Assembly: GCA_963675515.1 (NCBI GenBank)
Contig: OY776328.1
Location: 300,001 to 332,000, forward strand
Length of the DNA: 32,000 nucleotides
Source: Coprobacillaceae bacterium
GTDB lineage: Bacteria > Bacillota_I > Bacilli_A > Erysipelotrichales > Coprobacillaceae
Reading direction: 5' to 3'
Shown: piece by piece, positions 5,884 to 26,026 of the stretch
How the letters are laid out: every line of letters begins with the position of its first letter
Position numbering within the stretch: position 1 is the first letter of the stretch
Notes under the pieces: generated by a model
Seen by the model: only the letters and a program-made list of their open reading frames with translations
The model's database searches: none
What the model was told of the DNA's origin: nothing
Translations under genes and position numbers: made by a program

Positions 5884-7025
5884 CAGAAGCGTTGGACTAT
5901 ATTGAAAACAAAAGAATCAAAAGGACGCTGCAACAGTTCAAAGATACGCTAAAAAAATACGGGTTCGAGACGGGATATGACAACGTGATCCATATAACCG
6001 GAACGAATGGCAAAGGTTCGACTGCAAAATATCTTCAACTGATTTTGACCAATAACGGCTTTCGCACCGGGACATTCACATCCCCGTACTTAATCAGACA
6101 CAATGATCGGATATGCATCGATGGGGAAATGATTGATGATGCATCTTTGCTGGAAATAATCAACGGACTCCATGAACTGATTGAAACCGAAGGTTTGTCG
6201 ATGTTCGAGATTGACCTGCTTATATGTCTCAAGTGGTTTGAAAACAAGAATCTGGATTACCTGATTTTTGAGGCCGGAATCGGCGGACTTAACGACAAGA
6301 CCAATATCTTCGATTCGAATATCAGTGCCATCACCAATGTCGGTTTCGACCATCAGGATATGTTGGGTGAGACTCTTCAGGAGATATGCGGGCAGAAAAT
6401 GGGGATAATCCGTCCCGGTTCCACTTTTTTGACGACCGAGACCAACAGTGATCTTTTAGCGATGATGGAGTCGCGCTGCAGGGAACTCGACACCAGGTTT
6501 GTCAGGGTCGTCCGGTATGACCTGCAAATCGATGGGCAATTCATTCCCGTCAAGTTCGACCCGGCATACCAACAAGCCAATTGTGCATTGGCGCTGGCGA
6601 TTGCCAAGGAACTCATCCCGCTTGACATAGAACTTACAAAGAAGGCGATCGAAGCATTTTCACTGCCGCTCCATTTCGAGAAGATCGGCAAGTTCATTCT
6701 CGACGGCTCTCATAACCCGGCCGGAATTGCGGCGTTGGTCGAATCGATAGCCGGATTGAACAATGTGGCCTTCGTTTTTAGCGCCTTGGATGACAAGGAC
6801 AACGCCAAAATGCTGGAGTTACTAAACAATTATCCGGTATATGTAAGCAGTTTCCCTGACATAAGGCAAAAACCCAACAAATATGAAAATTTTACAAATA
6901 CTTTATCCAAAATATATGAAAAGTATGATACAATAATTCTTACAGGAAGCATTCATTTTGTTTCATATGCTAGAAGTTACTTGGGGGAAAAATTTCATGA
7001 GATTATTGACGAGGGAACAAACTAA
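5868..7025 (+). CDS. folC: folylpolyglutamate synthase/dihydrofolate synthase family (Mur ligase fold)
   Basis: The P-loop is HITGTNGKGST, with TSPYL and a DGSHNPAG-like motif. The GTG start at 5868 follows AGGAGA and overlaps the ung end. Confidence 0.75.
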   Translation: MFKEITEALDYIENKRIKRTLQQFKDTLKKYGFETGYDNVIHITGTNGKGSTAKYLQLILTNNGFRTGTFTSPYLIRHNDRICIDGEMIDDASLLEIINGLHELIETEGLSMFEIDLLICLKWFENKNLDYLIFEAGIGGLNDKTNIFDSNISAITNVGFDHQDMLGETLQEICGQKMGIIRPGSTFLTTETNSDLLAMMESRCRELDTRFVRVVRYDLQIDGQFIPVKFDPAYQQANCALALAIAKELIPLDIELTKKAIEAFSLPLHFEKIGKFILDGSHNPAGIAALVESIAGLNNVAFVFSALDDKDNAKMLELLNNYPVYVSSFPDIRQKPNKYENFTNTLSKIYEKYDTIILTGSIHFVSYARSYLGEKFHEIIDEGTN

Positions 7026-7158: not shown

Positions 7159-8286
7159 ATGGGTAAAGAAATTGTAGCAATGATTTTAGCAGGTGGCAGG
7201 GGAACCAGACTTAAAGCATTAACTGCTAATGTCGCTAAGCCGGCAGTGCATTTTGGGGGGAAGTATCGGATTATAGATTTTCCTTTAAGCAATTGTGCCA
7301 ATTCGGGGATTGATGTTGTTGGTGTGTTGACTCAGTATGAGTCGGTACTTTTGGGGACTTATGTCGGAGCAGGGACAAAATGGGGTCTTGACGGTAAACA
7401 GTCCCAAGCTGCGGTTTTGCCAGCACGTGAACGTGGCGGTGTCGGAGCTACGTGGTATGCGGGAACTGCGGATGCCATCTATCAGAATATCGGATTCCTC
7501 GATGAACAGTCACCGGAATACGTGCTGATTCTCTCAGGGGACCATATCTATAAAATGGATTATGACAAGATGCTCACAGCGCATAAGGAAAAGGGTGCCG
7601 ATTGCACCATCGCTGTTTTGAATGTATCATTGAAAGAGGCTAGCCGCTTTGGGATCATGAATACCAATCCGGATGGAACCATTTATGAGTTCGATGAAAA
7701 ACCGGCAAAGCCAAAATCGACTTTGGCATCAATGGGGATTTACATTTATACATATCAGGAACTGCGCAAATATCTGATCGAAGATGCCAAAGATGAAAAG
7801 TCGGCTCACGATTTCGGAATGAACATAATTCCAAACATGTTGGCGGACAACAAGAAATTGTACGCTTATGAATTCGACGGGTACTGGAAGGATGTCGGGA
7901 CAGTCGATTCGTTATGGGAAGCGAACATGGACTTGCTCGAAGATCATGAATTGGACTTGTACAACATCAATAATGATTGGAAAGTCTATACCGAAGACAC
8001 CTTGGCTAAACCGCAATATATCGGGGAAGACGCACAGATCTCAAATTCAATCATCAATCAGGGGTGCATGATTGAAGGAACCGTTACCGGATCAATCCTT
8101 TTTGGGGGAGTAAGCGTAGGTAAAGGTGCTATTGTTGAGGATTCGGTATTGATGCCAGGTGTCTTGGTTGAAGAGGGCAGCATCATCCGCAAGTCGATCA
8201 TCGATGAGGGTGTTGTCATCACGGAAAATACGAAAATCAACGAAGATGCTGTTGAAGTGGTGTTAGTATCTAACAGTGAAGGCTAG
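7159..8286 (+). CDS. glgC: glucose-1-phosphate adenylyltransferase
   Basis: [16 protein letters not shown]..., [15 protein letters not shown] and the C-terminal left-handed beta-helix repeats are present. The SD is AGGAGG. Confidence 0.9.
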
Positions 8287-8298
8287 GGGGAAATAATA

Positions 8299-9408
8299 AT
8301 GGCAAAAGTAATTGGAATTGTAAATTTGCACACATCTACGAGTTTTGACGGACTGACCGAAAGAAGGCCAAGCGCGTCGGTGAGCTTTCTGGGCCGCTAT
8401 GCCTTGATTGACTTCGTTTTGTCAAACATGTCTAACTCTAATATCGATACGGTCGGAGTGTTAATTCAGGAAAAACCAAGATCTTTGTTCAAGCACTTGG
8501 GTGGCGGTGATTCTTGGAACTTCAACTCGAAAGCCGGTGGGATTTCATTCCTATATAATGAGAAGTATGCGAATCATAAGAAATACAATCATGATTTGAA
8601 CAACCTGGAAGAAAACGTTCATTTCCTGGAGTCGGAAAACACGAAGTACGTGGTGATTGCTCCGGCTCATATCCTTACTACAATGAATTACGACGACATG
8701 ATCAATGCCCATGAAAAATCAGGGGCCCGCATCACAGTCGCTTACCAACATATAAACAATGGGGGAGAAACATTCATCGGAGCCCAAACGTTGAAAATCG
8801 AAGATGGCATAGTCAAGTCTTTTGCCGCAAACAAAGGGGTCAACAACGAATGCGACGTTTCCCTGGAGACTTACGTAATCAACAGGGACGCCCTGTATGA
8901 CATTATCCGTGATGCCAAGAAGGCTTCATCATTCTTCAAGCTCAAGGATGCACTGGCTTATTATGCGGCTGATAAAAAAATCCACGCCTACGAGTACCGT
9001 GGTTACGCGAGATATGTTGATTCACTTGAAAACTACTACAAAGTATCTTTGGAATTCCTGAATCTGGACATATCGTCTGCTGTTTTCAAATCGAACTGGC
9101 CTATCTACACCCTGACCAACGACACGCCTCCTGCCAAATATCTCAAAGACGCATCAGTCAAAAAATCGTTTATCGCCAATGGGGCGTTGATTGACGGAAC
9201 AGTGGAAAACAGCATCATCGGACGTGATGTGGTAATTGGCAAAGGTGCCATAGTCAAGAACTCGATAATCTTCACCGGTGCCAAAATCGCTCAAGGTGCG
9301 GTTGTTGTCAATACAATCATGGACAAACGGTCACAAGTTAAAATTCAAAAAGATCTGATCGGTGATCCACAGGCACCGCTCTATGTCAAAGAAGGGGATG
9401 TTGTTTAA
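8299..9408 (+). CDS. glgD: glucose-1-phosphate adenylyltransferase regulatory subunit GlgD
   Basis: It is a GlgC paralogue lacking the GGxGxRL motif (VIGIVNLHTS...RPSASVSFLGRYALIDFVLSNM) and lies between glgC and glgA, as in Bacillota. Confidence 0.85.
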   Translation: MAKVIGIVNLHTSTSFDGLTERRPSASVSFLGRYALIDFVLSNMSNSNIDTVGVLIQEKPRSLFKHLGGGDSWNFNSKAGGISFLYNEKYANHKKYNHDLNNLEENVHFLESENTKYVVIAPAHILTTMNYDDMINAHEKSGARITVAYQHINNGGETFIGAQTLKIEDGIVKSFAANKGVNNECDVSLETYVINRDALYDIIRDAKKASSFFKLKDALAYYAADKKIHAYEYRGYARYVDSLENYYKVSLEFLNLDISSAVFKSNWPIYTLTNDTPPAKYLKDASVKKSFIANGALIDGTVENSIIGRDVVIGKGAIVKNSIIFTGAKIAQGAVVVNTIMDKRSQVKIQKDLIGDPQAPLYVKEGDVV

Positions 9409-10835
9409 TGCGTGTTTTATTTGCAGCAAGCGAGGCCGTTCCTTTTATCAAATCGGGCGGTCTGGCTGACGTAATGGGTGCATTGCCCAAAGAATTGACA
9501 AAAAAAGGGGTTGAGACCCTGGTCGTATTGCCTAAATACAGCGACATGAAGATGGCGGATGAGTTGGAATATGTGACTTCATATGACATCTATATCGGTT
9601 GGCGCAAGGTATATTGCGGGATATTCAAGGCTGAGCTCTATGGGATAACCTATTACTTCATCGACAACGAAACCTACTTCCGCCGTCCTGGTCTTTATGG
9701 CTACCACGATGACAATGAACGCTTTGCCTTTTTCGATTTCGCGGTACTCGAGCTGATCAGCCATTTGGATCTTGGCATCGATGTGCTCCATCTTCATGAT
9801 TGGCAGACAGCTATGATAGCTATGGTCTACAAGGAAAGATACAGCTATTTTCCCGGATACGAGAATATCAAGATTGTGTTCACAATCCACAATATCGCCT
9901 TCCAGGGTAAATGCGATCCGAAACTGTTGACTGATCTTTTCAGTCTGGACAGCTATCTTTATTACAACGGGAATGCCCGTCATGATGATTGCCTTAACAT
10001 GATGAAAGCGGCGATTGTCTACAGTGATATCATCACAACCGTTTCTCCGACGTATGCCAAAGAGATACTGACACCTGAATATGGTGAAGGTTTGCACACT
10101 GTCCTTGAGCTGCGACGTTATGATCTGTATGGAATCCTTAACGGAATCGATTACGACATAAACGATCCGGAAACGGACAGCAGCCTTGTAGCCAATTTCA
10201 ACGCCGATAACTTCAGGGTTGAAAAAGTCAAAAACAAACTGGCTTTGCAAAAGGAAGTCGGTCTTGAACAAGACAGCAAGGTGCCTTTGATTGGCGTCGT
10301 GACCCGGCTGACCCGGCAAAAAGGACTTGACCTTATTCTCAACAAGCTTGAATTGCTTATGGAAGAGGAAGTCCAAGTCGTTATTCTTGGGGCTGGCGAC
10401 CAGGTGTATGAACAGGCACTAAAAGATATTGCCTGGAAATATGATGGCAAATTGTCGTTGCAGCTGAAATATGACTTCGGTCTTTCTTGCCGCATTTACG
10501 GCGGAACAGACATGTTCCTTATGCCTTCCTTGTTCGAACCGTGCGGGCTGTCTCAGATGATGGCGCTGCGCTATGGTTCGGTTCCGATTGTCCGGGAAAC
10601 GGGAGGGTTGAAAGATTCGGTCCCTGCCTACGATGATGAAAATCAGACTGGTCTTGGATTCTCGTTTGTGAATTTCAATGCTGAAGAAATGTATGACACT
10701 ATTCTTTATGCGCTTCATGTTTACTACAACGATCGTGAAGCCTTTGATGATCTGGTTGAGCGCGGCATGCTTGCCAAACTGGACTGGGAACATTCGGCCA
10801 TGGAATATTTGAAAATATACAAATCATTGCTCTAA
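9408..10835 (+). CDS. glgA: glycogen synthase (ADP-glucose type)
   Basis: MRVLFAASEAVPFIKSGGLADVMGALPKEL (KxGGL motif), HDWQTA, and PSLFEPCGLSQM are present. There is a 1-nt overlap with the glgD stop. Confidence 0.9.
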   Translation: MRVLFAASEAVPFIKSGGLADVMGALPKELTKKGVETLVVLPKYSDMKMADELEYVTSYDIYIGWRKVYCGIFKAELYGITYYFIDNETYFRRPGLYGYHDDNERFAFFDFAVLELISHLDLGIDVLHLHDWQTAMIAMVYKERYSYFPGYENIKIVFTIHNIAFQGKCDPKLLTDLFSLDSYLYYNGNARHDDCLNMMKAAIVYSDIITTVSPTYAKEILTPEYGEGLHTVLELRRYDLYGILNGIDYDINDPETDSSLVANFNADNFRVEKVKNKLALQKEVGLEQDSKVPLIGVVTRLTRQKGLDLILNKLELLMEEEVQVVILGAGDQVYEQALKDIAWKYDGKLSLQLKYDFGLSCRIYGGTDMFLMPSLFEPCGLSQMMALRYGSVPIVRETGGLKDSVPAYDDENQTGLGFSFVNFNAEEMYDTILYALHVYYNDREAFDDLVERGMLAKLDWEHSAMEYLKIYKSLL

Positions 10836-21226: not shown

Positions 21227-21235
21227 TAACGACTG

Positions 21236-21260
21236 ACCCGGGATATTCTCGGGTTTTTTA
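21236..21260 (+). terminator. rho-independent terminator
   Basis: ACCCGGG (21236-21242) pairs with CTCGGGT (21248-21254, one G-U pair), followed by T6. Confidence 0.7.
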
Positions 21261-21436
21261 ATGCAGTTTTTCATGTTATAGTTTAAACAGGAGATTGATC
21301 TTGGAATGTGGGAAAATCCCACGGGATTGTCAAAAATATCGGGAAATGTTCCATCATGACAGTTTGCCATAATTCAGTCATATTTTACCTATATCATATG
21401 ATTGAAAATAAGATAAGCGAATTTGTGGAGGTATCT

Positions 21437-22483
21437 ATGAAAATTGTAATAAAGATGTTGGTTGACCTGACGATGATGGTCATGTTTCTGTTTTTGATGT
21501 TCGGGTACGAACTCTCTCCTTTGTACCATGAGGTTTTGGGGATAGGTATTGGAGTTGTTTTCCTGATCCATGTTTTGTTGAACCTGAAAGCTACAAAGGG
21601 GATATTGGGGTCGCTGGTTGCCGGAAGGCTCAAAGGTACGACAAAGGCCAATGCCATATTGGATGTCGTGCTTTTGGTCATGATGCCCCTGGACATCATC
21701 AGCGGCCTGCTGGATTCCAAGTTCATAATATACAGTCCTTATAATTCCCTTATCTCAACGGCTCATCACGCCTTTTCTTGGGTTGTCTTGGCAATCATTG
21801 CGGGGCACCTCTATCTCCACCGGAATTACTTGAAGGCTGCCATAAAATCAAAATTCCTGCGTGGCAGACAGTCAAAAGGCAACGCGTTGGCATTGATGGG
21901 ACTTGTTGCGATAGTCGGCGGAGTGCTGTTCAATTCATTCATGCTAGTGTTGAACATCAATGATGGTTCGCTCGATTCGACAGTCAGCAGTAATGATGAC
22001 GATGATGACGATTCAAGCGGAACAGCCCAGGACAATGGGGGCGCCAGCACAGTGACGCTCGATAATTATCTTTCATCATTGCGCTGTGATGGCTGTGGCC
22101 GTCACTGCTCGCTGGCATCGCCTCAGTGTGGCATTGGCGAAGACCAGGCGGATCAGGCTACCCTTGAGTATGAGAGTCTCTATGGCCAAAGCGAAAGCGA
22201 TACAACCGACGAATCGCAGTCAACAACTGATGACTCAACATCGGGATCCAGCGAAAGCGATCAGCCGGCAACTGACGGAGGCGTAACCGACACTGCAATG
22301 ACCCTTAATGAATATCTTAAAGGTTTCAACTGCGATGGCTGCGGTCGTCGCTGTTCACTGGCCAATCCCAAATGTGGCATTGGGGAAAACCAGGCGGATC
22401 AGGCAACCTTGGATTATGAGAGCCTTTATGGACAAGAGGACTCAGGCAATACGAGTCTTGTGGCTGCAACATTCTCCAACTGA
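21437..22483 (+). CDS. five-TM His-rich membrane protein (DUF4405-like, putative cytochrome-b-like) fused to acidic linkers and two tandem Cx2Cx3Cx6C modules
   Basis: GGAGG (21426-21430) precedes ATG 21437. There are five hydrophobic segments, with His in or at the edge of TM segments (LYHEV, FLIHVL, STAHHAF, AGHLYLH). The C-terminal half holds two 45-aa repeats, each with CDGCGR(H/R)CSLxxPxCGIG. The family assignment is from memory of DUF4405 features and was not searched. Confidence 0.6.
   Translation: MKIVIKMLVDLTMMVMFLFLMFGYELSPLYHEVLGIGIGVVFLIHVLLNLKATKGILGSLVAGRLKGTTKANAILDVVLLVMMPLDIISGLLDSKFIIYSPYNSLISTAHHAFSWVVLAIIAGHLYLHRNYLKAAIKSKFLRGRQSKGNALALMGLVAIVGGVLFNSFMLVLNINDGSLDSTVSSNDDDDDDSSGTAQDNGGASTVTLDNYLSSLRCDGCGRHCSLASPQCGIGEDQADQATLEYESLYGQSESDTTDESQSTTDDSTSGSSESDQPATDGGVTDTAMTLNEYLKGFNCDGCGRRCSLANPKCGIGENQADQATLDYESLYGQEDSGNTSLVAATFSN
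22055..22189 (+). repeat. intragenic repeat copy 1 (Cys4 module)
   Basis: TLDNYLSSLRCDGCGRHCSLASPQCGIGEDQADQATLEYESLYGQ. By hand alignment to copy 2, 100 of 135 nt and 34 of 45 aa are identical. Confidence 0.85.
22301..22435 (+). repeat. intragenic repeat copy 2 (Cys4 module)
   Basis: TLNEYLKGFNCDGCGRRCSLANPKCGIGENQADQATLDYESLYGQ. It lies 246 nt (82 codons) downstream of copy 1. Confidence 0.85.
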
Positions 22484-22586: not shown

Positions 22587-23264
22587 ATGAGGATTTTATT
22601 GGCTGAAGATGAACGCGATATCGCAAACGTGTTGCAGGTGGTATTGAAACGTAATAACTATGAGGTTGATTGGGTAAGCAATGGAGTTGATTTTGTGGAC
22701 TATATCGACACCGGAAATTATGATCTGGCTGTTTTGGATATAATGATGCCAAAGATGGACGGAATAAGCGCTTTGAAGATCATCAGGGAAAAGGGATTTG
22801 AAATTCCGGTCATCTTGCTGACTGCAAAAAGCGAGGTCGATGACAAGGTTAATGGGCTTGATTCAGGCAGCGACGATTATCTTACCAAGCCATTCGCAAC
22901 CAAAGAGCTGCTGGCCAGGATCAGGATGCTTCTGCGAAGGAATAAAACGACAGTCGACAATGAGCTTACCTATGGAAATATAGTCCTGTCACGGGTAACT
23001 TATTTGCTTAAGGGTCCAAAGCGGGAGTTCAAGCTGGCATCCAAAGAGTTCCAATTGCTCGAATTGCTGCTCCAGCAACCTGGAGCGGTCATTTCCACAG
23101 AAATGTTCATGGACAAGGTATGGGGATACCAGAGCGAAAGTGAAATCAATGTGGTCTGGACGCATATCTCGTACATCCGGAAGAAATTGAGGGAAATCGG
23201 ATCGAATGTGGTAATAAAGGCGTCACGGGGTGCGGGTTATTTTCTGGAGGTAAGCGATGATTAA
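22587..23264 (+). CDS. OmpR/PhoB-family response regulator
   Basis: MRILLAEDERDIANVL, the acceptor region LAVLDIMMPKMDG, LLTAK, and a C-terminal winged helix (...VWTHISYIRKKL...SRGAGYFLE) are present. The start at ATG 22587 follows GGGGTGA. Confidence 0.85.
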   Translation: MRILLAEDERDIANVLQVVLKRNNYEVDWVSNGVDFVDYIDTGNYDLAVLDIMMPKMDGISALKIIREKGFEIPVILLTAKSEVDDKVNGLDSGSDDYLTKPFATKELLARIRMLLRRNKTTVDNELTYGNIVLSRVTYLLKGPKREFKLASKEFQLLELLLQQPGAVISTEMFMDKVWGYQSESEINVVWTHISYIRKKLREIGSNVVIKASRGAGYFLEVSDD

Positions 23265-24489
23265 AAGACTGCAGCGCCGATTCATCCTTATTGCCTTGAT
23301 ATCGGTGTCGGTCGTCTTCGTCGTCATAATGGGCACTTTGCTTATAAGCGATTACGTGAACATTGTCGAAAAGGCAGACAATTCGATAGACCTTATTTAT
23401 TCGGCGGGCGACATGCTAAAAGCCGACCTGTCAGACCGGACGACAATAAAGAAGCCGCCTACTGACGATTTGGATGGCAGCTATGATTTCAGGGGACCTG
23501 AGGGGATTTTTTCTTCCCGATTCTTCATCGTTACCCTTAACGATGGGGTCGTCAGTGATGTCAATGTCGACAATATCTCGGCTATAGACCAGGCGAGTGC
23601 AAGTGCAATGGCGTTGGAAGTGATTGACAATGACAGCGGCGTCTATGACAATTATCGGTATAAGGTATTTGATGATGGGTCGAGTCTGACGGTCGTCTTC
23701 ATCGATACCTTTATGGAAATGCAGTCTTTCTATGACTTTCTGACCAATACCGCCATAATGGGTGGCTTTGGACTTGGGATGTTCATCATAATCGCGTGGT
23801 TCCTGTCAAAGATGGCAATAAGACCTTTGGTGGAATCGATCGAAAAGCAAAAGCAGTTCATCACCAATGCTTCCCACGAACTGAAGACACCATTGACTGT
23901 TATTTCCGCCAACAATGAAATGATCGAGCTCGATTATGGAGAGAACAACTGGTCGCAAGGCATCGAGAGGCAGGTTGCCAAGATGAACAAGCTTACGAAT
24001 TCGCTGGTGACCCTGGCCCGGCTCGACGAACAGAATTATCATGTCGAACTCAAAGATGTCTCCTTGAACGAACTTGTCCGGGAAGTTGCGGAGGATTATC
24101 GCGATCTGGCCTTGGTTGAAAATAAGACTTTTGAATGCGAGCTGGATCCGGTAGTGCTAAAGGGAAATGGCGAACTGCTATCCCAGCTTGTCTCCATATT
24201 GCTTGACAATGCGCTGAAGTACTCAAACGGCAATGGTTGGATCAGGATCCGCCTTTCAGGGGGCAAGCGGAGACGTCTTATCGTTGAAAACAGCGTGGCT
24301 GAAATCACTTCAGGAAATCATGACGAAGTGTTCGAACGATTCACCCGGCTGGAACAGTCACGCAACTCAAGTCTTGGTGGATATGGAGTCGGGCTGGCCA
24401 TTGCCAAGTCAATTGTGAACAGGCATCATGGCAAAATCAGGGCATACAGCAATGACAGCAACACTTTCACCATCATGGTTGAATTCTGA
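23257..24489 (+). CDS. sensor histidine kinase (two TM, extracytoplasmic loop of about 140 aa, HisKA + HATPase_c)
   Basis: The H-box is NASHELKTPL, the N-box LLDNALKYS, and the G-box GGYGVGLAIAKSIV. Its start overlaps the end of the regulator gene by 8 nt (23257-23264, ATGATTAA). Confidence 0.85.
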   Translation: MIKRLQRRFILIALISVSVVFVVIMGTLLISDYVNIVEKADNSIDLIYSAGDMLKADLSDRTTIKKPPTDDLDGSYDFRGPEGIFSSRFFIVTLNDGVVSDVNVDNISAIDQASASAMALEVIDNDSGVYDNYRYKVFDDGSSLTVVFIDTFMEMQSFYDFLTNTAIMGGFGLGMFIIIAWFLSKMAIRPLVESIEKQKQFITNASHELKTPLTVISANNEMIELDYGENNWSQGIERQVAKMNKLTNSLVTLARLDEQNYHVELKDVSLNELVREVAEDYRDLALVENKTFECELDPVVLKGNGELLSQLVSILLDNALKYSNGNGWIRIRLSGGKRRRLIVENSVAEITSGNHDEVFERFTRLEQSRNSSLGGYGVGLAIAKSIVNRHHGKIRAYSNDSNTFTIMVEF

Positions 24490-24490
24490 T

Positions 24491-24514
24491 AACGGCTTTT
24501 GCCGTTTTTTTTAA
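24491..24514 (+). terminator. rho-independent terminator
   Basis: AACGGC (24491-24496) pairs with GCCGTT (24501-24506), followed by T8. Confidence 0.75.
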
Positions 24515-24516
24515 TC

Positions 24517-24549
24517 CTTAAAGTACGTTTAAAGTTGTATTGGTAAATT
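24517..24549 (+). promoter_or_regulatory. 20-bp direct-repeat box plus extended -10 upstream of the VTC-domain gene
   Basis: CTTAAAGTACGTTTAAAGTT (24517-24536), 4 nt, TGgTAAATT (24541-24549). 16 of 20 box positions match the element at 22537-22556. Confidence 0.4.
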
Positions 24550-24571
24550 GATATTGTAAGGAGTGTAAAAA

Positions 24572-25318
24572 ATGGCAAATGACAAATTTGAACGTCTGGA
24601 ATTCAAATATCTGATTACCAGATCCCAACAAAAAAGACTTTTTGATAAATTCCCGGAATCTGTTAAAATGGATGCCTACGGCCACACCGAGATTTACAAT
24701 CTATATTTTGACACCGATGATTTCCGACTGATCCGCAGTTCAATCGAGAAACCGGTCTACAAGGAAAAATTGCGAGTGCGATCATATGGCCGGGCAAACA
24801 TGAAAGAACCGGTTTATATCGAACTTAAGAAGAAGTACAAAGGCATCGTTTACAAGCGGAGGATAGAAGAAGCCCAAGATGAGGCGCTGACTGCCTTGAT
24901 AACCAAAAACATCGACTGTGACAATCAGATAGGACGGGAGATCGACTATTTCACCAAATATTACCAGACATTGCGTCCGCGGATGTTTATCGGTTATACA
25001 AGGGATGCCTATTGCGACCAAAAAAATCCGGAATTGCGGATCACCTTTGACTCCGATATTAAATATCGCCTCGACAATCTGACCCTGGATTGCAAAAATG
25101 AGGGTGATCAACTGATTGATGGAGATCATGTCCTGATGGAAATCAAAATAATGGGGGCGTTTCCTTTGTGGCTTTCAGTTGCCCTGTCCCAGTTGGCGAT
25201 CACCAAGTCAAGTTTTTCCAAATATGGCAATGCCTACAAGTCGTGTCTGGCAACCGGACGCATCAACATTAAGATAAATAATAACTATGGAAAACAAGGA
25301 GTAATGACTTATGCTTGA
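24572..25318 (+). CDS. VTC-domain protein (CYTH-like triphosphate-tunnel fold; annotated in databases as polyphosphate polymerase domain-containing)
   Basis: The N-terminus is FERLEFKYLI. Alternating charged strand motifs are present: KLRVRSY, YIELKKKY, VYKRRIE, LRITFDSD and VLMEIKI. The SD is AAGGAG. Confidence 0.7.
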   Translation: MANDKFERLEFKYLITRSQQKRLFDKFPESVKMDAYGHTEIYNLYFDTDDFRLIRSSIEKPVYKEKLRVRSYGRANMKEPVYIELKKKYKGIVYKRRIEEAQDEALTALITKNIDCDNQIGREIDYFTKYYQTLRPRMFIGYTRDAYCDQKNPELRITFDSDIKYRLDNLTLDCKNEGDQLIDGDHVLMEIKIMGAFPLWLSVALSQLAITKSSFSKYGNAYKSCLATGRINIKINNNYGKQGVMTYA

Positions 25319-26003
25319 TTCAATAATCGAACAGCTGACATCGACAACGACATCACAGATCACATTGTCATCTTTTCTAAGCTGCATGGTGGCGGCCATG
25401 ATCATCGGGCTTGTGATAGCCAAAATTTACGAATATAAGAACAACTATAACAAGGGATTTGTGATCACCCTGGCAATGCTTCCGTCAATTGTGACATTGG
25501 TCATAATGATGGTCAACGGCAATATCGGTACGGGGGTGGCTGTCGCCGGGGCGTTTTCCCTGGTAAGATTCCGCTCCCAGCCTGGAAGTGCCCGGGAAAT
25601 TAATGCGATATTTTTCACAATGGCCACCGGACTTGCGACCGGTATGGGGTATCTTCTCATAGCGGTGCTCTTTACTGCTGTCATGGCTATCTTCAATATG
25701 GTGCTGGTCAGCAGTTCATTCGGTGAAGCCGGTGAAAATATCACCAAAAAGGAAATCCGGATCACGATCCCTGAAGACCTGGACTATGAAAATGTGTTCA
25801 ACGACCTGTTTGAAGAGGCGACAAGAAATTACCGGCTGGTCGAAGTCAAGACAACGAATATGGGCAGCCTGTTCAAGTTGCGATACGAGGTGGAGTTCAA
25901 AGCCGGAGCAAACGAAAAGGATTTTATCGACAGCCTTCGTTGCCGAAACGGTAATCTGGAAATATCAAGCTCCTATTCACGCTCGGCAATCACAGAATTA
26001 TAA
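25311..26003 (+). CDS. DUF4956-type membrane protein with a C-terminal soluble alpha/beta domain
   Basis: It has four to five TM segments including GVAVAGAFSLVRFRSQPGSAREI and FFTMATGLATGMGY, and a soluble tail of about 80 aa. There is an 8-nt overlap with the VTC gene (translational coupling). The family call is from memory. Confidence 0.6.
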   Translation: MLDSIIEQLTSTTTSQITLSSFLSCMVAAMIIGLVIAKIYEYKNNYNKGFVITLAMLPSIVTLVIMMVNGNIGTGVAVAGAFSLVRFRSQPGSAREINAIFFTMATGLATGMGYLLIAVLFTAVMAIFNMVLVSSSFGEAGENITKKEIRITIPEDLDYENVFNDLFEEATRNYRLVEVKTTNMGSLFKLRYEVEFKAGANEKDFIDSLRCRNGNLEISSSYSRSAITEL

Positions 26004-26004
26004 T

Positions 26005-26026
26005 ACGGCGTTATGCCGTTTTTTTG
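26005..26026 (+). terminator. rho-independent terminator
   Basis: ACGGC (26005-26009) pairs with GCCGT (26015-26019), followed by T7. Confidence 0.7.

Follow-up and report, generated by a model that had tools for sequence, protein, structure and literature searches.

Can a small membrane protein of a gut bacterium pass electrons to a cysteine-rich domain that it holds outside the cell? The question is raised by an open reading frame in a 32,000-nucleotide stretch of the genome of a Coprobacillaceae bacterium (GCA_963675515.1, contig OY776328.1, positions 300,001 to 332,000; hereafter, the window; all features below are on the plus strand). A sequence-only reading of the window proposed that the product of this gene is a His-rich, DUF4405-like membrane domain fused to two tandem extracytoplasmic Cx2Cx3Cx6C modules, and that it may act as a transmembrane electron conduit feeding extracellular metal or disulfide centres. 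We found that what this reading described in the sequence is real, down to the details, while its interpretation is supported only in part.

The open reading frame at 21437-22483, stop codon included, translates to 348 amino acids. The ATG at 21437 is the real start: all homologues begin with MKIVIKML, and a ribosome-binding site, GGAGG, lies at 21427-21431, ending 5 nt before the ATG, whereas the longer reading from a GTG at 21308 is only mechanical. Upstream, a terminator-like hairpin followed by a T-run at 21235-21255, after adhE, separates the gene from adhE transcription; the hairpin is conserved in three related loci (L009, L001 and L002). A direct repeat, GCCATAATTCA / GTCATATTT, with an 11-bp period is located at 21366-21385. 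It is conserved in four related loci and, by inference, is a candidate binding site for an OmpR-type regulator. We searched for a regulator motif shared between the promoters of this gene, of the neighbouring two-component system and of the VTC operon described below, but the repeat is unique in the window to the upstream region of this gene. Rfam scans of the window and of 16 related loci revealed no riboswitch or leader upstream of any family member.

Five hydrophobic helices were seen both by hydropathy analysis and in an AlphaFold2 (AF2) model, and His residues are present at positions 31, 45, 110, 111, 124 and 128, as the sequence-only reading described. TM1 (21455-21511, about residues 7-25) runs from inside to outside and contains D10, which is 92% conserved. 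TM2 (21527-21586, about residues 31-50) carries H31 and E32 on the outer side and H45 and N49 on the inner side, and is followed by a basic cytoplasmic loop 2 (KATKG...RLKGTTK, 21587-21649). TM3 (21650-21715, about residues 72-93) precedes TM4 (21755-21820, about residues 107-128), which carries H110 on the outer side and H124 and H128 on the inner side and is followed by a basic cytoplasmic loop 4 (RNYLKAAIKSKFLRGRQSKG, 21821-21883). TM5 (21884-21955, about residues 150-173) takes the chain to the outside. In 109 relatives, H31, H110 and H124 are 100% conserved, H45 and E32 99%, H128 97% and N49 95%. H31/H45 on TM2 and H110/H124 on TM4, the proposed haem ligands, are each 14 residues apart, which is a textbook di-haem arrangement and corresponds to the four conserved, centrally placed His residues of DUF4405 (PF14358) cytochromes.

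We next asked whether the membrane domain belongs to a known family. The window protein itself has no Pfam DUF4405 hit, a point on which the sequence-only reading needs correction; its only match to a membrane cytochrome family is a sub-threshold one to Ni_hydr_CYTB (PF01292; 22.9 bits against a cut-off of 30.1, E 8.3e-5), which is consistent with membership of the cytochrome-b561 clan but not of that family. The link to DUF4405 comes through homologues. Out of seven aligned members, two (P0006 and P0007) pass the DUF4405 cut-off, at best E 1.1e-14, and these two align with the window protein over its whole length at E 1.6e-18 and 3.1e-12. Three other module-bearing relatives (P0008, P0114 and P0128) pass at 37-41 bits against a cut-off of 26.7, P0008 scoring 41 bits. 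All seven aligned members give weak Ni_hydr_CYTB hits and three give weak Ferric_reduct hits. The assignment of the window protein to DUF4405 therefore rests on transitive homology, and the Pfam comparison on its own leaves it undecided. An AF2 model of the full-length protein built from seven sequences was poor (pLDDT 55) and was used only as a weak indication of the fold; its best PDB matches are cytochrome b561, the quinol:fumarate reductase haem subunit, STEAP and Dcytb, all at non-significant E-values. Haem b has been found in a purified Oscillospiraceae DUF4405 protein and in FezC, a DUF4405-like cytochrome of the ferrosome (PMC11334425, 2024), so this half of the protein, read as a diverged DUF4405 / cytochrome-b561-clan domain, is of a type already known; haem binding by the window protein was not assayed. 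As with the DUF4405 cytochromes, the presumed role is transmembrane electron transfer to an extracytoplasmic partner, and the proteins are found mainly in Firmicutes.

The C-terminal half consists of an acidic, Ser/Thr-rich disordered tether 1 (21956-22054, including SSNDDDDDDSS), module copy 1 (22055-22189, residues 207-251, with Cys217, 220, 224 and 231), an acidic tether 2 (SESDTTDESQSTTDDSTSGSSESD..., 22190-22300) and module copy 2 (22301-22435, residues 289-333, with Cys299, 302, 306 and 313). Tether 1 is modelled at pLDDT below 50, and family linkers are S/T/E/D-rich, are 58 amino acids long on average and contain no Cys or Trp. The two 45-residue repeats share exactly 34 of 45 amino acids and 100 of 135 nucleotides. 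Nei-Gojobori analysis gives dS 1.13, dN 0.19 and dN/dS 0.17, in agreement with the proposal that the duplication is old and kept under purifying selection. The pattern C..C...C......C occurs only twice in the six-frame translation of the whole window, both times in this open reading frame. The closest relatives (55-66% identical) carry one module, to which copy 2 is positionally orthologous, so copy 1 is a lineage-specific addition. Tandem duplication is not the norm in the family: among 154 proteins scanned, 124 have one copy, 26 have two and four have three.

The sequence-only reading had stated that its idea would be undercut if the Cys residues were not conserved in homologues, and that its novelty would vanish if the module matched a known domain. 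On both points the outcome was favorable. A 54-position profile of the module, run against 1.84 billion proteins, finds 519 representative proteins at E<=1e-3 (at least 519 clusters at 50% identity) and 258 at E<=1e-10. Across 186 HMM-defined copies, Cys1, Cys2 and Cys4 are present in 186 and Cys3 in 184, with Tyr in the other two. Leu+9, Pro+12 and Gly+17 are also near-invariant, and the family can be described by the motif YLxxLxCxGCxxxC(S/P)LxxPxCxxGxxQAxxAxxxY in an extracytoplasmic position; both window copies match the profile. Pfam and NCBIfam scans of the whole protein, of the isolated module and of ten diverse relatives found no model that covers the module. PDB sequence profiles built from 8-sequence and 92-sequence alignments gave no hit at E<=10. 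AF2 models copy 2 at pLDDT 94.8 as a short helix, a 15-residue Cys loop and a long helix, and Foldseek searches of this model against PDB and BFVD gave nothing significant. Full-text literature searches for the motif spacing and for DUF3079 (see below) found nothing relevant. A word-index search with the 92-sequence module alignment, to which such short queries are unsuited, returned only three short proteins. A search for related loci with a narrow alignment gave five usable genome loci and two spurious matches in non-coding frames of high-GC proteobacteria, which were discarded, and a metagenome scan gave two short, weak loci, which were not used.

Known Cys-based motifs were compared with the module one by one. 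Ferredoxin-type 4Fe-4S domains have a Cx2Cx2Cx3CP motif; the spacing here is different, there is no Fer4 hit on the window protein, and one relative gives only noise-level hits (E 0.15-0.9). Rubredoxin and zinc-ribbon or treble-clef knuckles likewise have four Cys within a short loop, and the first Cys pair of the module, CxxCG, resembles a rubredoxin or zinc knuckle; the last Cys sits at the N-terminus of a helix in the AF2 secondary structure. However, the module has one CxxC rather than two, is predicted to be helical rather than built on a beta-hairpin, is extracytoplasmic and has no PDB match. A haem c site (CxxCH) was considered and rejected, since the residue after the second Cys is Gly, Ser, His or Pro, with His in only 11% of copies. 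A recurrent sub-threshold hit to DUF3079 (PF11278), a family of small Cys-rich proteobacterial proteins of unknown function, aligns profile positions 16-37 exactly over the Cys4 stretch, which makes the same Cys spacing likely. The scores are 12-19 bits against a gathering score of 27 and are confined to that stretch, and the taxa differ. A remote relationship is possible but was not established: a tblastn search of plasmids with the module consensus found no match, and no DUF3079 sequences were obtained for a profile-profile test.

The proposed N-in/C-out topology is supported by several observations. Over 109 relatives, the mean net charge is +2.9 for the N-terminus, +5.4 for loop 2, +4.4 for loop 4 and about 0 for loops 1 and 3. 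In 51 of 153 module-bearing proteins, a further TM helix, (D/E)(Y/F)xPIMGLYIAGT(H/Y)Y, followed by a K/R-rich tail, is present after the module(s). Stand-alone module proteins carry the module after a lipoprotein signal (P0036) or an N-terminal anchor. Every architecture places the module outside the cell. The reverse arrangement, with cytoplasmic modules binding Fe-S or zinc and feeding electrons into the cytochrome, could be considered because compact Cys4 motifs can bind [4Fe-4S] clusters, which are assembled in the cytoplasm, and because the published DUF4405 model has six TM helices, which would put its C-terminus inside (PMC11334425). The window protein has five helices and lacks the sixth, which, where present, follows the module and is itself followed by the K/R tail, and the tethers are of the S/T/D/E-rich type typical of exported linkers. 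We regard reversed topology as very unlikely.

In order to see what the gene may work with, we examined its neighbors. Downstream are an OmpR-type response regulator (22587-23264, 225 amino acids from the ATG at 22587) and a sensor histidine kinase (23257-24489) with two TM helices and an extracytoplasmic loop of about 130 amino acids, followed by a terminator at 24491-24506. Next are a VTC-domain (polyphosphate-polymerase-like) protein (24572-25318) and an overlapping gene for a DUF4956 membrane protein (25311-26003), with a terminator at 26005-26019. VTC, DUF4956 and a two-component system lie next to a Cys4-module gene in three of 12 independent neighborhoods, namely in the window lineage, in an Oscillospiraceae locus (L012) and in a further locus (L026), with component identities between lineages of only 27-47%; a Cthe_2159 lipoprotein is sometimes present as well. 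The other nine neighborhoods show no VTC/DUF4956 link and no obvious redox partner. No apbE gene and no FMN-bind or Flavodoxin_4 partner was found in the window or in any of the independent loci examined, so the flavinylation-associated setting of other DUF4405 proteins was not observed here.

In L026, a stand-alone gene encoding an anchor, two Cys4 modules and a TM helix overlaps the start of a gene for a NapH-like Fer4_5 polyferredoxin. This is the one verified locus of its type; two further such pairs probably share contigs, as judged from the identical source and size of the contigs. P0236, a 37%-identical relative of that NapH-like protein, carries a TM helix, an S/T-rich linker and FMN_bind instead; the layout of membrane electron carrier, TM helix, S/T-rich linker and small exported redox domain is the same. 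Among 28 relatives of the L026 NapH-like protein, no NapH-like/Cys4 fusion was found. NapH-like (PF12801) and DUF4405 proteins are described conduits for extracytosolic FMN-bind domains (PMC8238504, PMC11334425), and the placement of the Cys4 module, fused to a DUF4405 cytochrome or encoded next to a NapH-like protein, resembles that of the flavinylated domain. The NapH-like carrier uses Fe-S clusters rather than haems and is unrelated to the DUF4405 domain, and the FMN-bind domain is a flavoprotein that needs ApbE, while the Cys4 module has no flavinylation motif. The claim of the sequence-only reading that a conduit feeding extracellular centres would be an unusual architecture thus overstates the case, since DUF4405, MsrQ-like, PepSY-like and NapH-like proteins paired with FMN-bind domains form an established class (PMC8238504, PMC11334425). 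What is new is the Cys4 module in that position. MsrQ/MsrP, eukaryotic cytochrome b561/Dcytb and STEAP also use di-haem or haem-containing helical bundles to move electrons across a membrane to an outside metal ion or partner enzyme, but the similarity in sequence and structure is weak and below significance, none of them has a tethered Cys4 domain, and the donor and acceptor are not known here.

We consider it somewhat more likely than not that the gene encodes a five-helix, two-haem b-type membrane cytochrome of the DUF4405 / cytochrome-b561 clan that supplies electrons to the modules. In this view, H45 and H124 would hold a haem near the cytoplasmic face and H31 and H110 a second haem near the outer face; electrons from a quinol or a cytoplasmic reductant would pass through both and be handed to the Cys4 domains, of which this species has two, each on a long acidic disordered tether. 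The domain would most likely hold a metal-thiolate centre, either mononuclear Fe or Zn or a small Fe-S cluster, and would act as the mobile extracytoplasmic electron-transfer or metal-handling site, filling the slot that the FMN-bind domain fills in other DUF4405 and NapH-like systems. A ligand role for four invariant Cys is favored by the fact that Firmicutes generally exclude Cys from exported proteins and that anaerobes often lack disulfide-forming machinery. The recurrent neighbors suggest that the electrons or metal serve an envelope process linked to exported polyphosphate. The architecture, the His and Cys conservation, the consistency of the topology, the confidently predicted module fold and the gene neighborhoods were shown in our analysis, whereas haem binding by this particular protein, the direction of electron flow, the nature of the cofactor and the final acceptor are inferences. 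There is no cofactor evidence for either the protein or the module, and the Cys geometry was not measured in the model. In addition, a Sec- or YidC-exported domain cannot receive a cytoplasmically assembled Fe-S cluster, so any cluster would have to self-assemble outside; tethers of 20-120 residues put the module far from the outer haem unless it docks back onto the membrane domain; and many host lineages are anaerobes that may lack quinones or haem synthesis, which was not examined.

Three other roles for the four Cys appear unlikely but possible. The first is transient capture of a thiophilic ion such as Fe, Cu or As(III), which the conduit would reduce or the module would hand to a transporter or to exported polyphosphate, making the protein a metal reductase or metallochaperone. 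Relatives of both conduit types are metal reductases: FezC is related to DUF4405 (PMC11334425), the weak Ferric_reduct hits and the non-significant STEAP and Dcytb matches point the same way, and CcoG, a Fer4_5-family protein, is a cupric reductase. An ArsR/SmtB-type regulator lies directly upstream in one locus (L025; 53.7 bits against a cut-off of 55), and polyphosphate, to which the VTC/DUF4956 neighbors point, is a strong metal chelator. On the other hand, the high AF2 confidence and the invariant hydrophobic core suggest a rigid, permanently folded knuckle, more typical of a fixed metal site, no transporter gene is a conserved neighbor, and the ArsR hit is a single borderline case.

The second, slightly less likely, is a thiol-disulfide relay, in which C1-C2 (as CxxC) and C3-C4 would form two redox-active disulfides and the module would be the mobile thiol-exchange arm, the cytochrome oxidising exported thiols, as DsbB and VKOR do with quinone, or reducing exported disulfides. 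A CxxC pair plus a second Cys pair is reminiscent of the DsbB loops; DsbB, VKOR and DsbD-CcdA likewise couple a membrane redox protein to exported Cys pairs, but the proposed cofactors here are haems and there is no significant similarity to these systems. The best structural match of the module is the periplasmic thiol-oxidoreductase domain of CcmH (2hl7), a three-helix bundle with an LRCxxC active site, but the match is not significant (E=4.7, probability 0.12, TM-score 0.52 normalised to the query and 0.34 normalised to the target) and the module does not qualify as a CcmH-type protein. In a Treponema locus (L013), a thioredoxin-like gene of the MTH895/ArsE family overlaps the 3' end of the gene (72 bits against a cut-off of 62). 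However, both partner types, the b haems and the NapH-like Fe-S clusters, are one-electron carriers, there is no thioredoxin-like or DsbB fold, the two copies with Tyr in place of Cys3 would be left with an unpaired Cys, and the hosts are mostly anaerobic Firmicutes, which tend to avoid exported disulfides.

The third, and the least likely of these, is a redox-inert structural Zn(Cys)4 knuckle that would mediate protein-protein contact, dimerisation or binding to a cell-envelope polymer or polyphosphate, possibly signalling to the adjacent histidine kinase, with the cytochrome working independently. Small Cys4 domains are most often zinc sites, a two-component system is adjacent in three lineages, and basic residues are conserved around the Cys loop (K/R at +5 in 95% of copies and H/R at +6 in 83%). 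A purely structural role does not explain the selective association with two unrelated electron carriers, and in most loci there is no kinase nearby. Whether the Cys4 centre binds a metal, binds an Fe-S cluster or forms disulfides was not tested here.

A more far-reaching possibility, which we consider unlikely but which would be of much interest if true, is that the Cys4 module is a previously unrecognised, flavin-independent class of extracytoplasmic electron-transfer or metal-handling domain in anaerobic Firmicutes and their neighbors, able to plug into at least two unrelated conduits, the DUF4405 haem proteins and the NapH-like Fe-S proteins. Together with a two-component system, a VTC polyphosphate-polymerase-like protein, DUF4956 and Cthe_2159, it would form an envelope system that redox-cycles a metal, most plausibly iron, on exported polyphosphate, an extracellular counterpart of the ferrosome cytochrome FezC.

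The family is currently annotated only as "DUF4405 domain-containing" or "hypothetical" protein, so a domain model could be added to the databases directly, and a 45-residue domain that can be expressed alone and examined for metal content and redox behaviour would be an easy experimental handle. The recurrent link to bacterial VTC/DUF4956 genes, which are uncharacterised polyphosphate-polymerase-like systems, touches an open problem, since a recent preprint reports PPK-independent extracellular polyphosphate in the Bacillus cereus group with no known synthase (PMC13484657). How Gram-positive anaerobes move electrons beyond the membrane is an active question, and the extracytoplasmic carriers recognised so far are flavinylated FMN-bind domains and multihaem cytochromes. 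A third exported module, Cys-based, found in hundreds of protein clusters and attached to the same families of membrane conduit, would widen that picture.

The ORF at 21437-22483 (+), which lies in the 2.88-Mb genome of an uncultured member of the Erysipelotrichaceae, is real and encodes a protein of 348 aa. Automatic ORF calling extends it to a GTG at 21308. However, all homologues start at MKIVIKML, and a GGAGG sequence is located 5 nt upstream of the ATG at 21437, so the start codon chosen in the sequence-only reading is the right one. Both hydropathy analysis and the AF2 model give five TM helices. The two repeats lie exactly where the sequence-only reading had placed them and share 34/45 residues and 100/135 nucleotides, with dS of 1.13, dN of 0.19 and dN/dS of 0.17, i.e., the duplication is old and has been kept under purifying selection, as had been deduced. 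The Cx2Cx3Cx6C pattern was not found anywhere else in the six-frame translation of the window. What had been observed from the sequence alone held up, while the accompanying interpretation, a transmembrane electron conduit feeding extracellular metal or disulfide centres, received only partial support; the nature of the centre is inferred.

The window protein itself falls below the Pfam thresholds, with only a Ni_hydr_CYTB match of 22.9 bits (the cut-off being 30.1). Its full-length homologues P0006 and P0007, and many other module-bearing relatives, do pass the DUF4405 (PF14358) threshold; all members give weak cytochrome-b561 hits, and three give weak Ferric_reduct hits. We aligned the N-terminal domains of 109 module-bearing proteins. 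As can be seen from this alignment, H31, H110 and H124 are invariant, H45 and E32 are 99% conserved, H128 is 97%, N49 is 95% and D10 is 92% conserved. H31 and H45 on TM2 and H110 and H124 on TM4 are each 14 residues apart, which is the classic geometry for two bis-His b haems, one near each membrane face. The best PDB neighbours of the low-confidence full-length model are cytochrome b561, the di-haem subunit of quinol:fumarate reductase, STEAP and Dcytb, though none of these matches is significant. In a 2024 study, an Oscillospiraceae DUF4405 protein and the related ferrosome protein FezC were purified with haem b and proposed to be transmembrane electron carriers (PMC11334425). The membrane half is therefore a diverged representative of an already known type of protein. 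Its membership of the DUF4405 clan rests on transitive homology and His conservation; it fails the Pfam threshold itself.

Across the same 109 proteins, the N-terminus, loop 2 and loop 4 carry mean net charges of +2.9, +5.4 and +4.4, respectively, while loops 1 and 3 are neutral. By the positive-inside rule, TM5 exits to the outside. Three independent observations agree with this assignment, and we consider the reversed topology, with the C-terminal half in the cytoplasm, very unlikely. First, 51 of 153 module-bearing representatives (P0007, P0012, P0024, P0027 and others) have a further conserved TM helix, (D/E)(Y/F)xPIMGLYIAGT(H/Y)Y, after the module(s), followed by a K/R-rich tail, so that in these proteins the module sits in an outer loop between two helices. 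This helix probably corresponds to TM6 of the published six-helix DUF4405 model, and the window protein and its close relatives have lost it. The helix follows the module(s) both in the DUF4405 fusions and in stand-alone proteins, and module plus helix behaves like a mobile cassette; the conserved His/Tyr of the helix is unexplained. Second, there are stand-alone module proteins, of which one, P0036, has a lipoprotein signal (lipobox LTGC), while others have a conserved N-terminal anchor or an N-terminal anchor plus the C-terminal helix. Third, the tethers are S/T/E/D-rich, average 58 residues and contain no Cys or Trp.

We next searched 1.84 billion representative proteins with a profile built from eight copies of the Cys4 module, which retrieved 519 hits at E<=1e-3 and 258 at E<=1e-10. 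Among the 154 proteins scanned, 124 carry one copy, 26 carry two and 4 carry three. The consensus is (P)(T/S)L(E/D)(E/D)YL(G/S)xLxC(T)GC(G)(K/R)(H)C(S/P)LxxPxCxxGxxQAxxAxxEYxxxYG. Lack of conservation of the Cys residues in homologues had been set out beforehand as an outcome that would undercut the redox reading. On the contrary, in 186 HMM-defined copies Cys1, Cys2, Cys4, Leu+9 and Gly+17 are invariant, and Cys3 is replaced only twice, in both cases by Tyr (CTGCSKHYPL in copy 1 of P0024 and CEGCPRRYSL in P0140), with all other invariant positions kept. Since Tyr can act as a ligand to Fe(III), these replacements may bear on the identity of the cofactor. Family members were also found on two MAG contigs labelled Muribaculaceae (Bacteroidota), L010 and L011, with AT-rich, Firmicute-looking sequences; either the module occurs outside Firmicutes or the contigs are mis-binned. 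In the close relatives of the window protein (55-66% identity) there is one module, with which the second copy of the window protein aligns, whereas the first copy lies in an insertion.

A match of the module to a known domain had likewise been named in advance, as the result that would remove its novelty. No Pfam or NCBIfam model covers the module, and the only recurrent signal is a sub-threshold DUF3079 hit that lies exactly over the Cys stretch. No PDB sequence match was obtained, and a literature search on the Cys spacing found nothing. Named members, for example those of Eubacterium aggregans and E. barkeri, are annotated only as "DUF4405 domain-containing protein" or "hypothetical protein". 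With a 92-sequence alignment, AF2 gives a confident model (pLDDT 94.8) that consists of a short helix, a 15-residue Cys loop with a beta-bridge and a long helix beginning right after Cys4. Foldseek searches of PDB and BFVD with this model returned nothing significant. The module is therefore a real, widespread and uncurated domain without a solved relative in the sequence and structure libraries searched here, and it is not a member of any described family that we could test: the tests for ferredoxin, rubredoxin or zinc ribbon, DUF3079 and CcmH all came out negative.

In the window, the gene is its own transcription unit: a terminator-like hairpin follows adhE, and a weak AT-rich hairpin follows the gene. 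A direct repeat with an 11-bp period (GCCATAATTCA / GTCATATTT) is located at 21366-21385, about 50 nt upstream of the start codon. The repeat is conserved in four related loci and unique in the window; it looks like an OmpR/PhoB-type regulator site, but it was not found upstream of the neighbouring two-component or VTC operons. Downstream of the gene, at 22587-26003, lie an operon of an OmpR-type response regulator (RR) and a histidine kinase (HK), followed by a VTC-DUF4956 operon. This order is kept in three related Erysipelotrichaceae contigs. The window also holds a family-II (DHH/DHHA2) pyrophosphatase with CBS and DRTGG inserts and a glgC-glgD-glgA glycogen operon (1120-2760 and 7159-10835). 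These are ordinary housekeeping genes, mentioned only because pyrophosphatase and polyphosphate genes share the window.

The same partners recur with distant family members. The Oscillospiraceae locus L012 reads HK, RR, VTC, DUF4956, Cthe_2159 lipoprotein, DUF4405-Cys4 and NAGPA, and the metagenomic locus L026 reads RR, HK, VTC, DUF4956, Cthe_2159, a stand-alone "anchor - 2x Cys4 - TM" protein and a NapH-like Fer4_5 polyferredoxin. Component identities between the three lineages are only 27-47%. The cluster of an OmpR-type two-component system, a VTC-domain (polyphosphate-polymerase-like) protein and a DUF4956 membrane protein (188-3627 in L012 and 2110-7819 in L026) is conserved across three distant lineages, two of which also have the Cthe_2159 beta-helix lipoprotein. 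The system is uncharacterised in bacteria. It could be a candidate for the PPK-independent extracellular polyphosphate reported in the Bacillus cereus group (PMC13484657), although that paper states that B. cereus has no VTC4 homologue.

The association is seen in three of twelve independent neighbourhoods, which for a gene family present about once per genome is very unlikely by chance (a rough estimate is about 1e-5, assuming one VTC locus per roughly 2500 genes). The other nine neighbourhoods are unrelated. In Treponema locus L013, a thioredoxin-like MTH895/ArsE-family gene (6098-6559) overlaps the 3′ end of the family member, and in another locus, L025, an ArsR/SmtB-type metalloregulator gene (6343-6669) lies directly upstream. 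Each is a single case that hints at thiol, metal or metalloid chemistry. A thiol-disulfide relay and a transient metal capture and reduction site were both considered as alternative functions of the module; either is possible, but we regard both as unlikely. In locus L019, a fluoride riboswitch (Rfam RF01734, 44 bits) at 7663-7743 (-) lies upstream of the Na+/H+ exchanger gene that diverges from the three-module family member P0011; it belongs to this neighbouring gene and not to the cytochrome gene.

L026 is the most informative locus, since the DUF4405 cytochrome is absent there and a different membrane electron carrier takes its place beside the module. At 8001-9748 of L026 (also at 129-1876 of locus L027), the stand-alone "anchor - 2x Cys4 - TM" gene overlaps the start of the NapH/MauN-like Fer4_5 polyferredoxin gene. 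Relatives of this NapH-like protein add further support. Two of them, P0225 and P0227, probably share contigs with two other stand-alone Cys4x2 proteins, P0033 and P0035, as judged by contigs of identical size (6688 and 14534) and source; adjacency of the genes was not verified. A 37%-identical relative, P0236, has the layout NapH-like, TM, S/T-rich linker, FMN_bind. NapH-like and DUF4405 proteins are exactly the conduits that the literature pairs with exported FMN-bind domains (PMC8238504; PMC11334425). On this evidence, the Cys4 module occupies the architectural slot of the flavinylated domain. No apbE or FMN_bind gene was seen in any Cys4 locus.

The protein is inferred to work like the DUF4405, NapH-like and MsrQ-like extracytosolic electron-transfer systems; however, it lacks TM6 and the flavinylation partners. 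The conduit is known, whereas the exported module is new. In the best-supported reading, which we hold to be somewhat more likely than not, electrons cross the membrane through the two b haems and reach a tethered Cys4 centre outside, which then reduces, oxidises or handles something in the envelope. While the architecture is defined and the domain is widespread and its fold confidently predicted, no cofactor evidence has been obtained, and the nature of the centre is a matter of inference. Four points argue for a metal-thiolate site (Fe(Cys)4, Zn or a self-assembling small Fe-S cluster) rather than structural disulfides: the presence of four invariant Cys in an exported Firmicute domain, the CxxCG first knuckle, the rigid, confidently predicted loop and the exclusive association with one-electron carriers. 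An inert zinc knuckle used for binding or signalling is a further alternative, which we regard as unlikely. FezC, a DUF4405-like protein, is thought to redox-cycle iron in ferrosomes, and by analogy, iron handling on exported polyphosphate is the most interesting possibility, though for now an unlikely one. The link to VTC/DUF4956 suggests that the target process involves polyphosphate made at or exported through the membrane.
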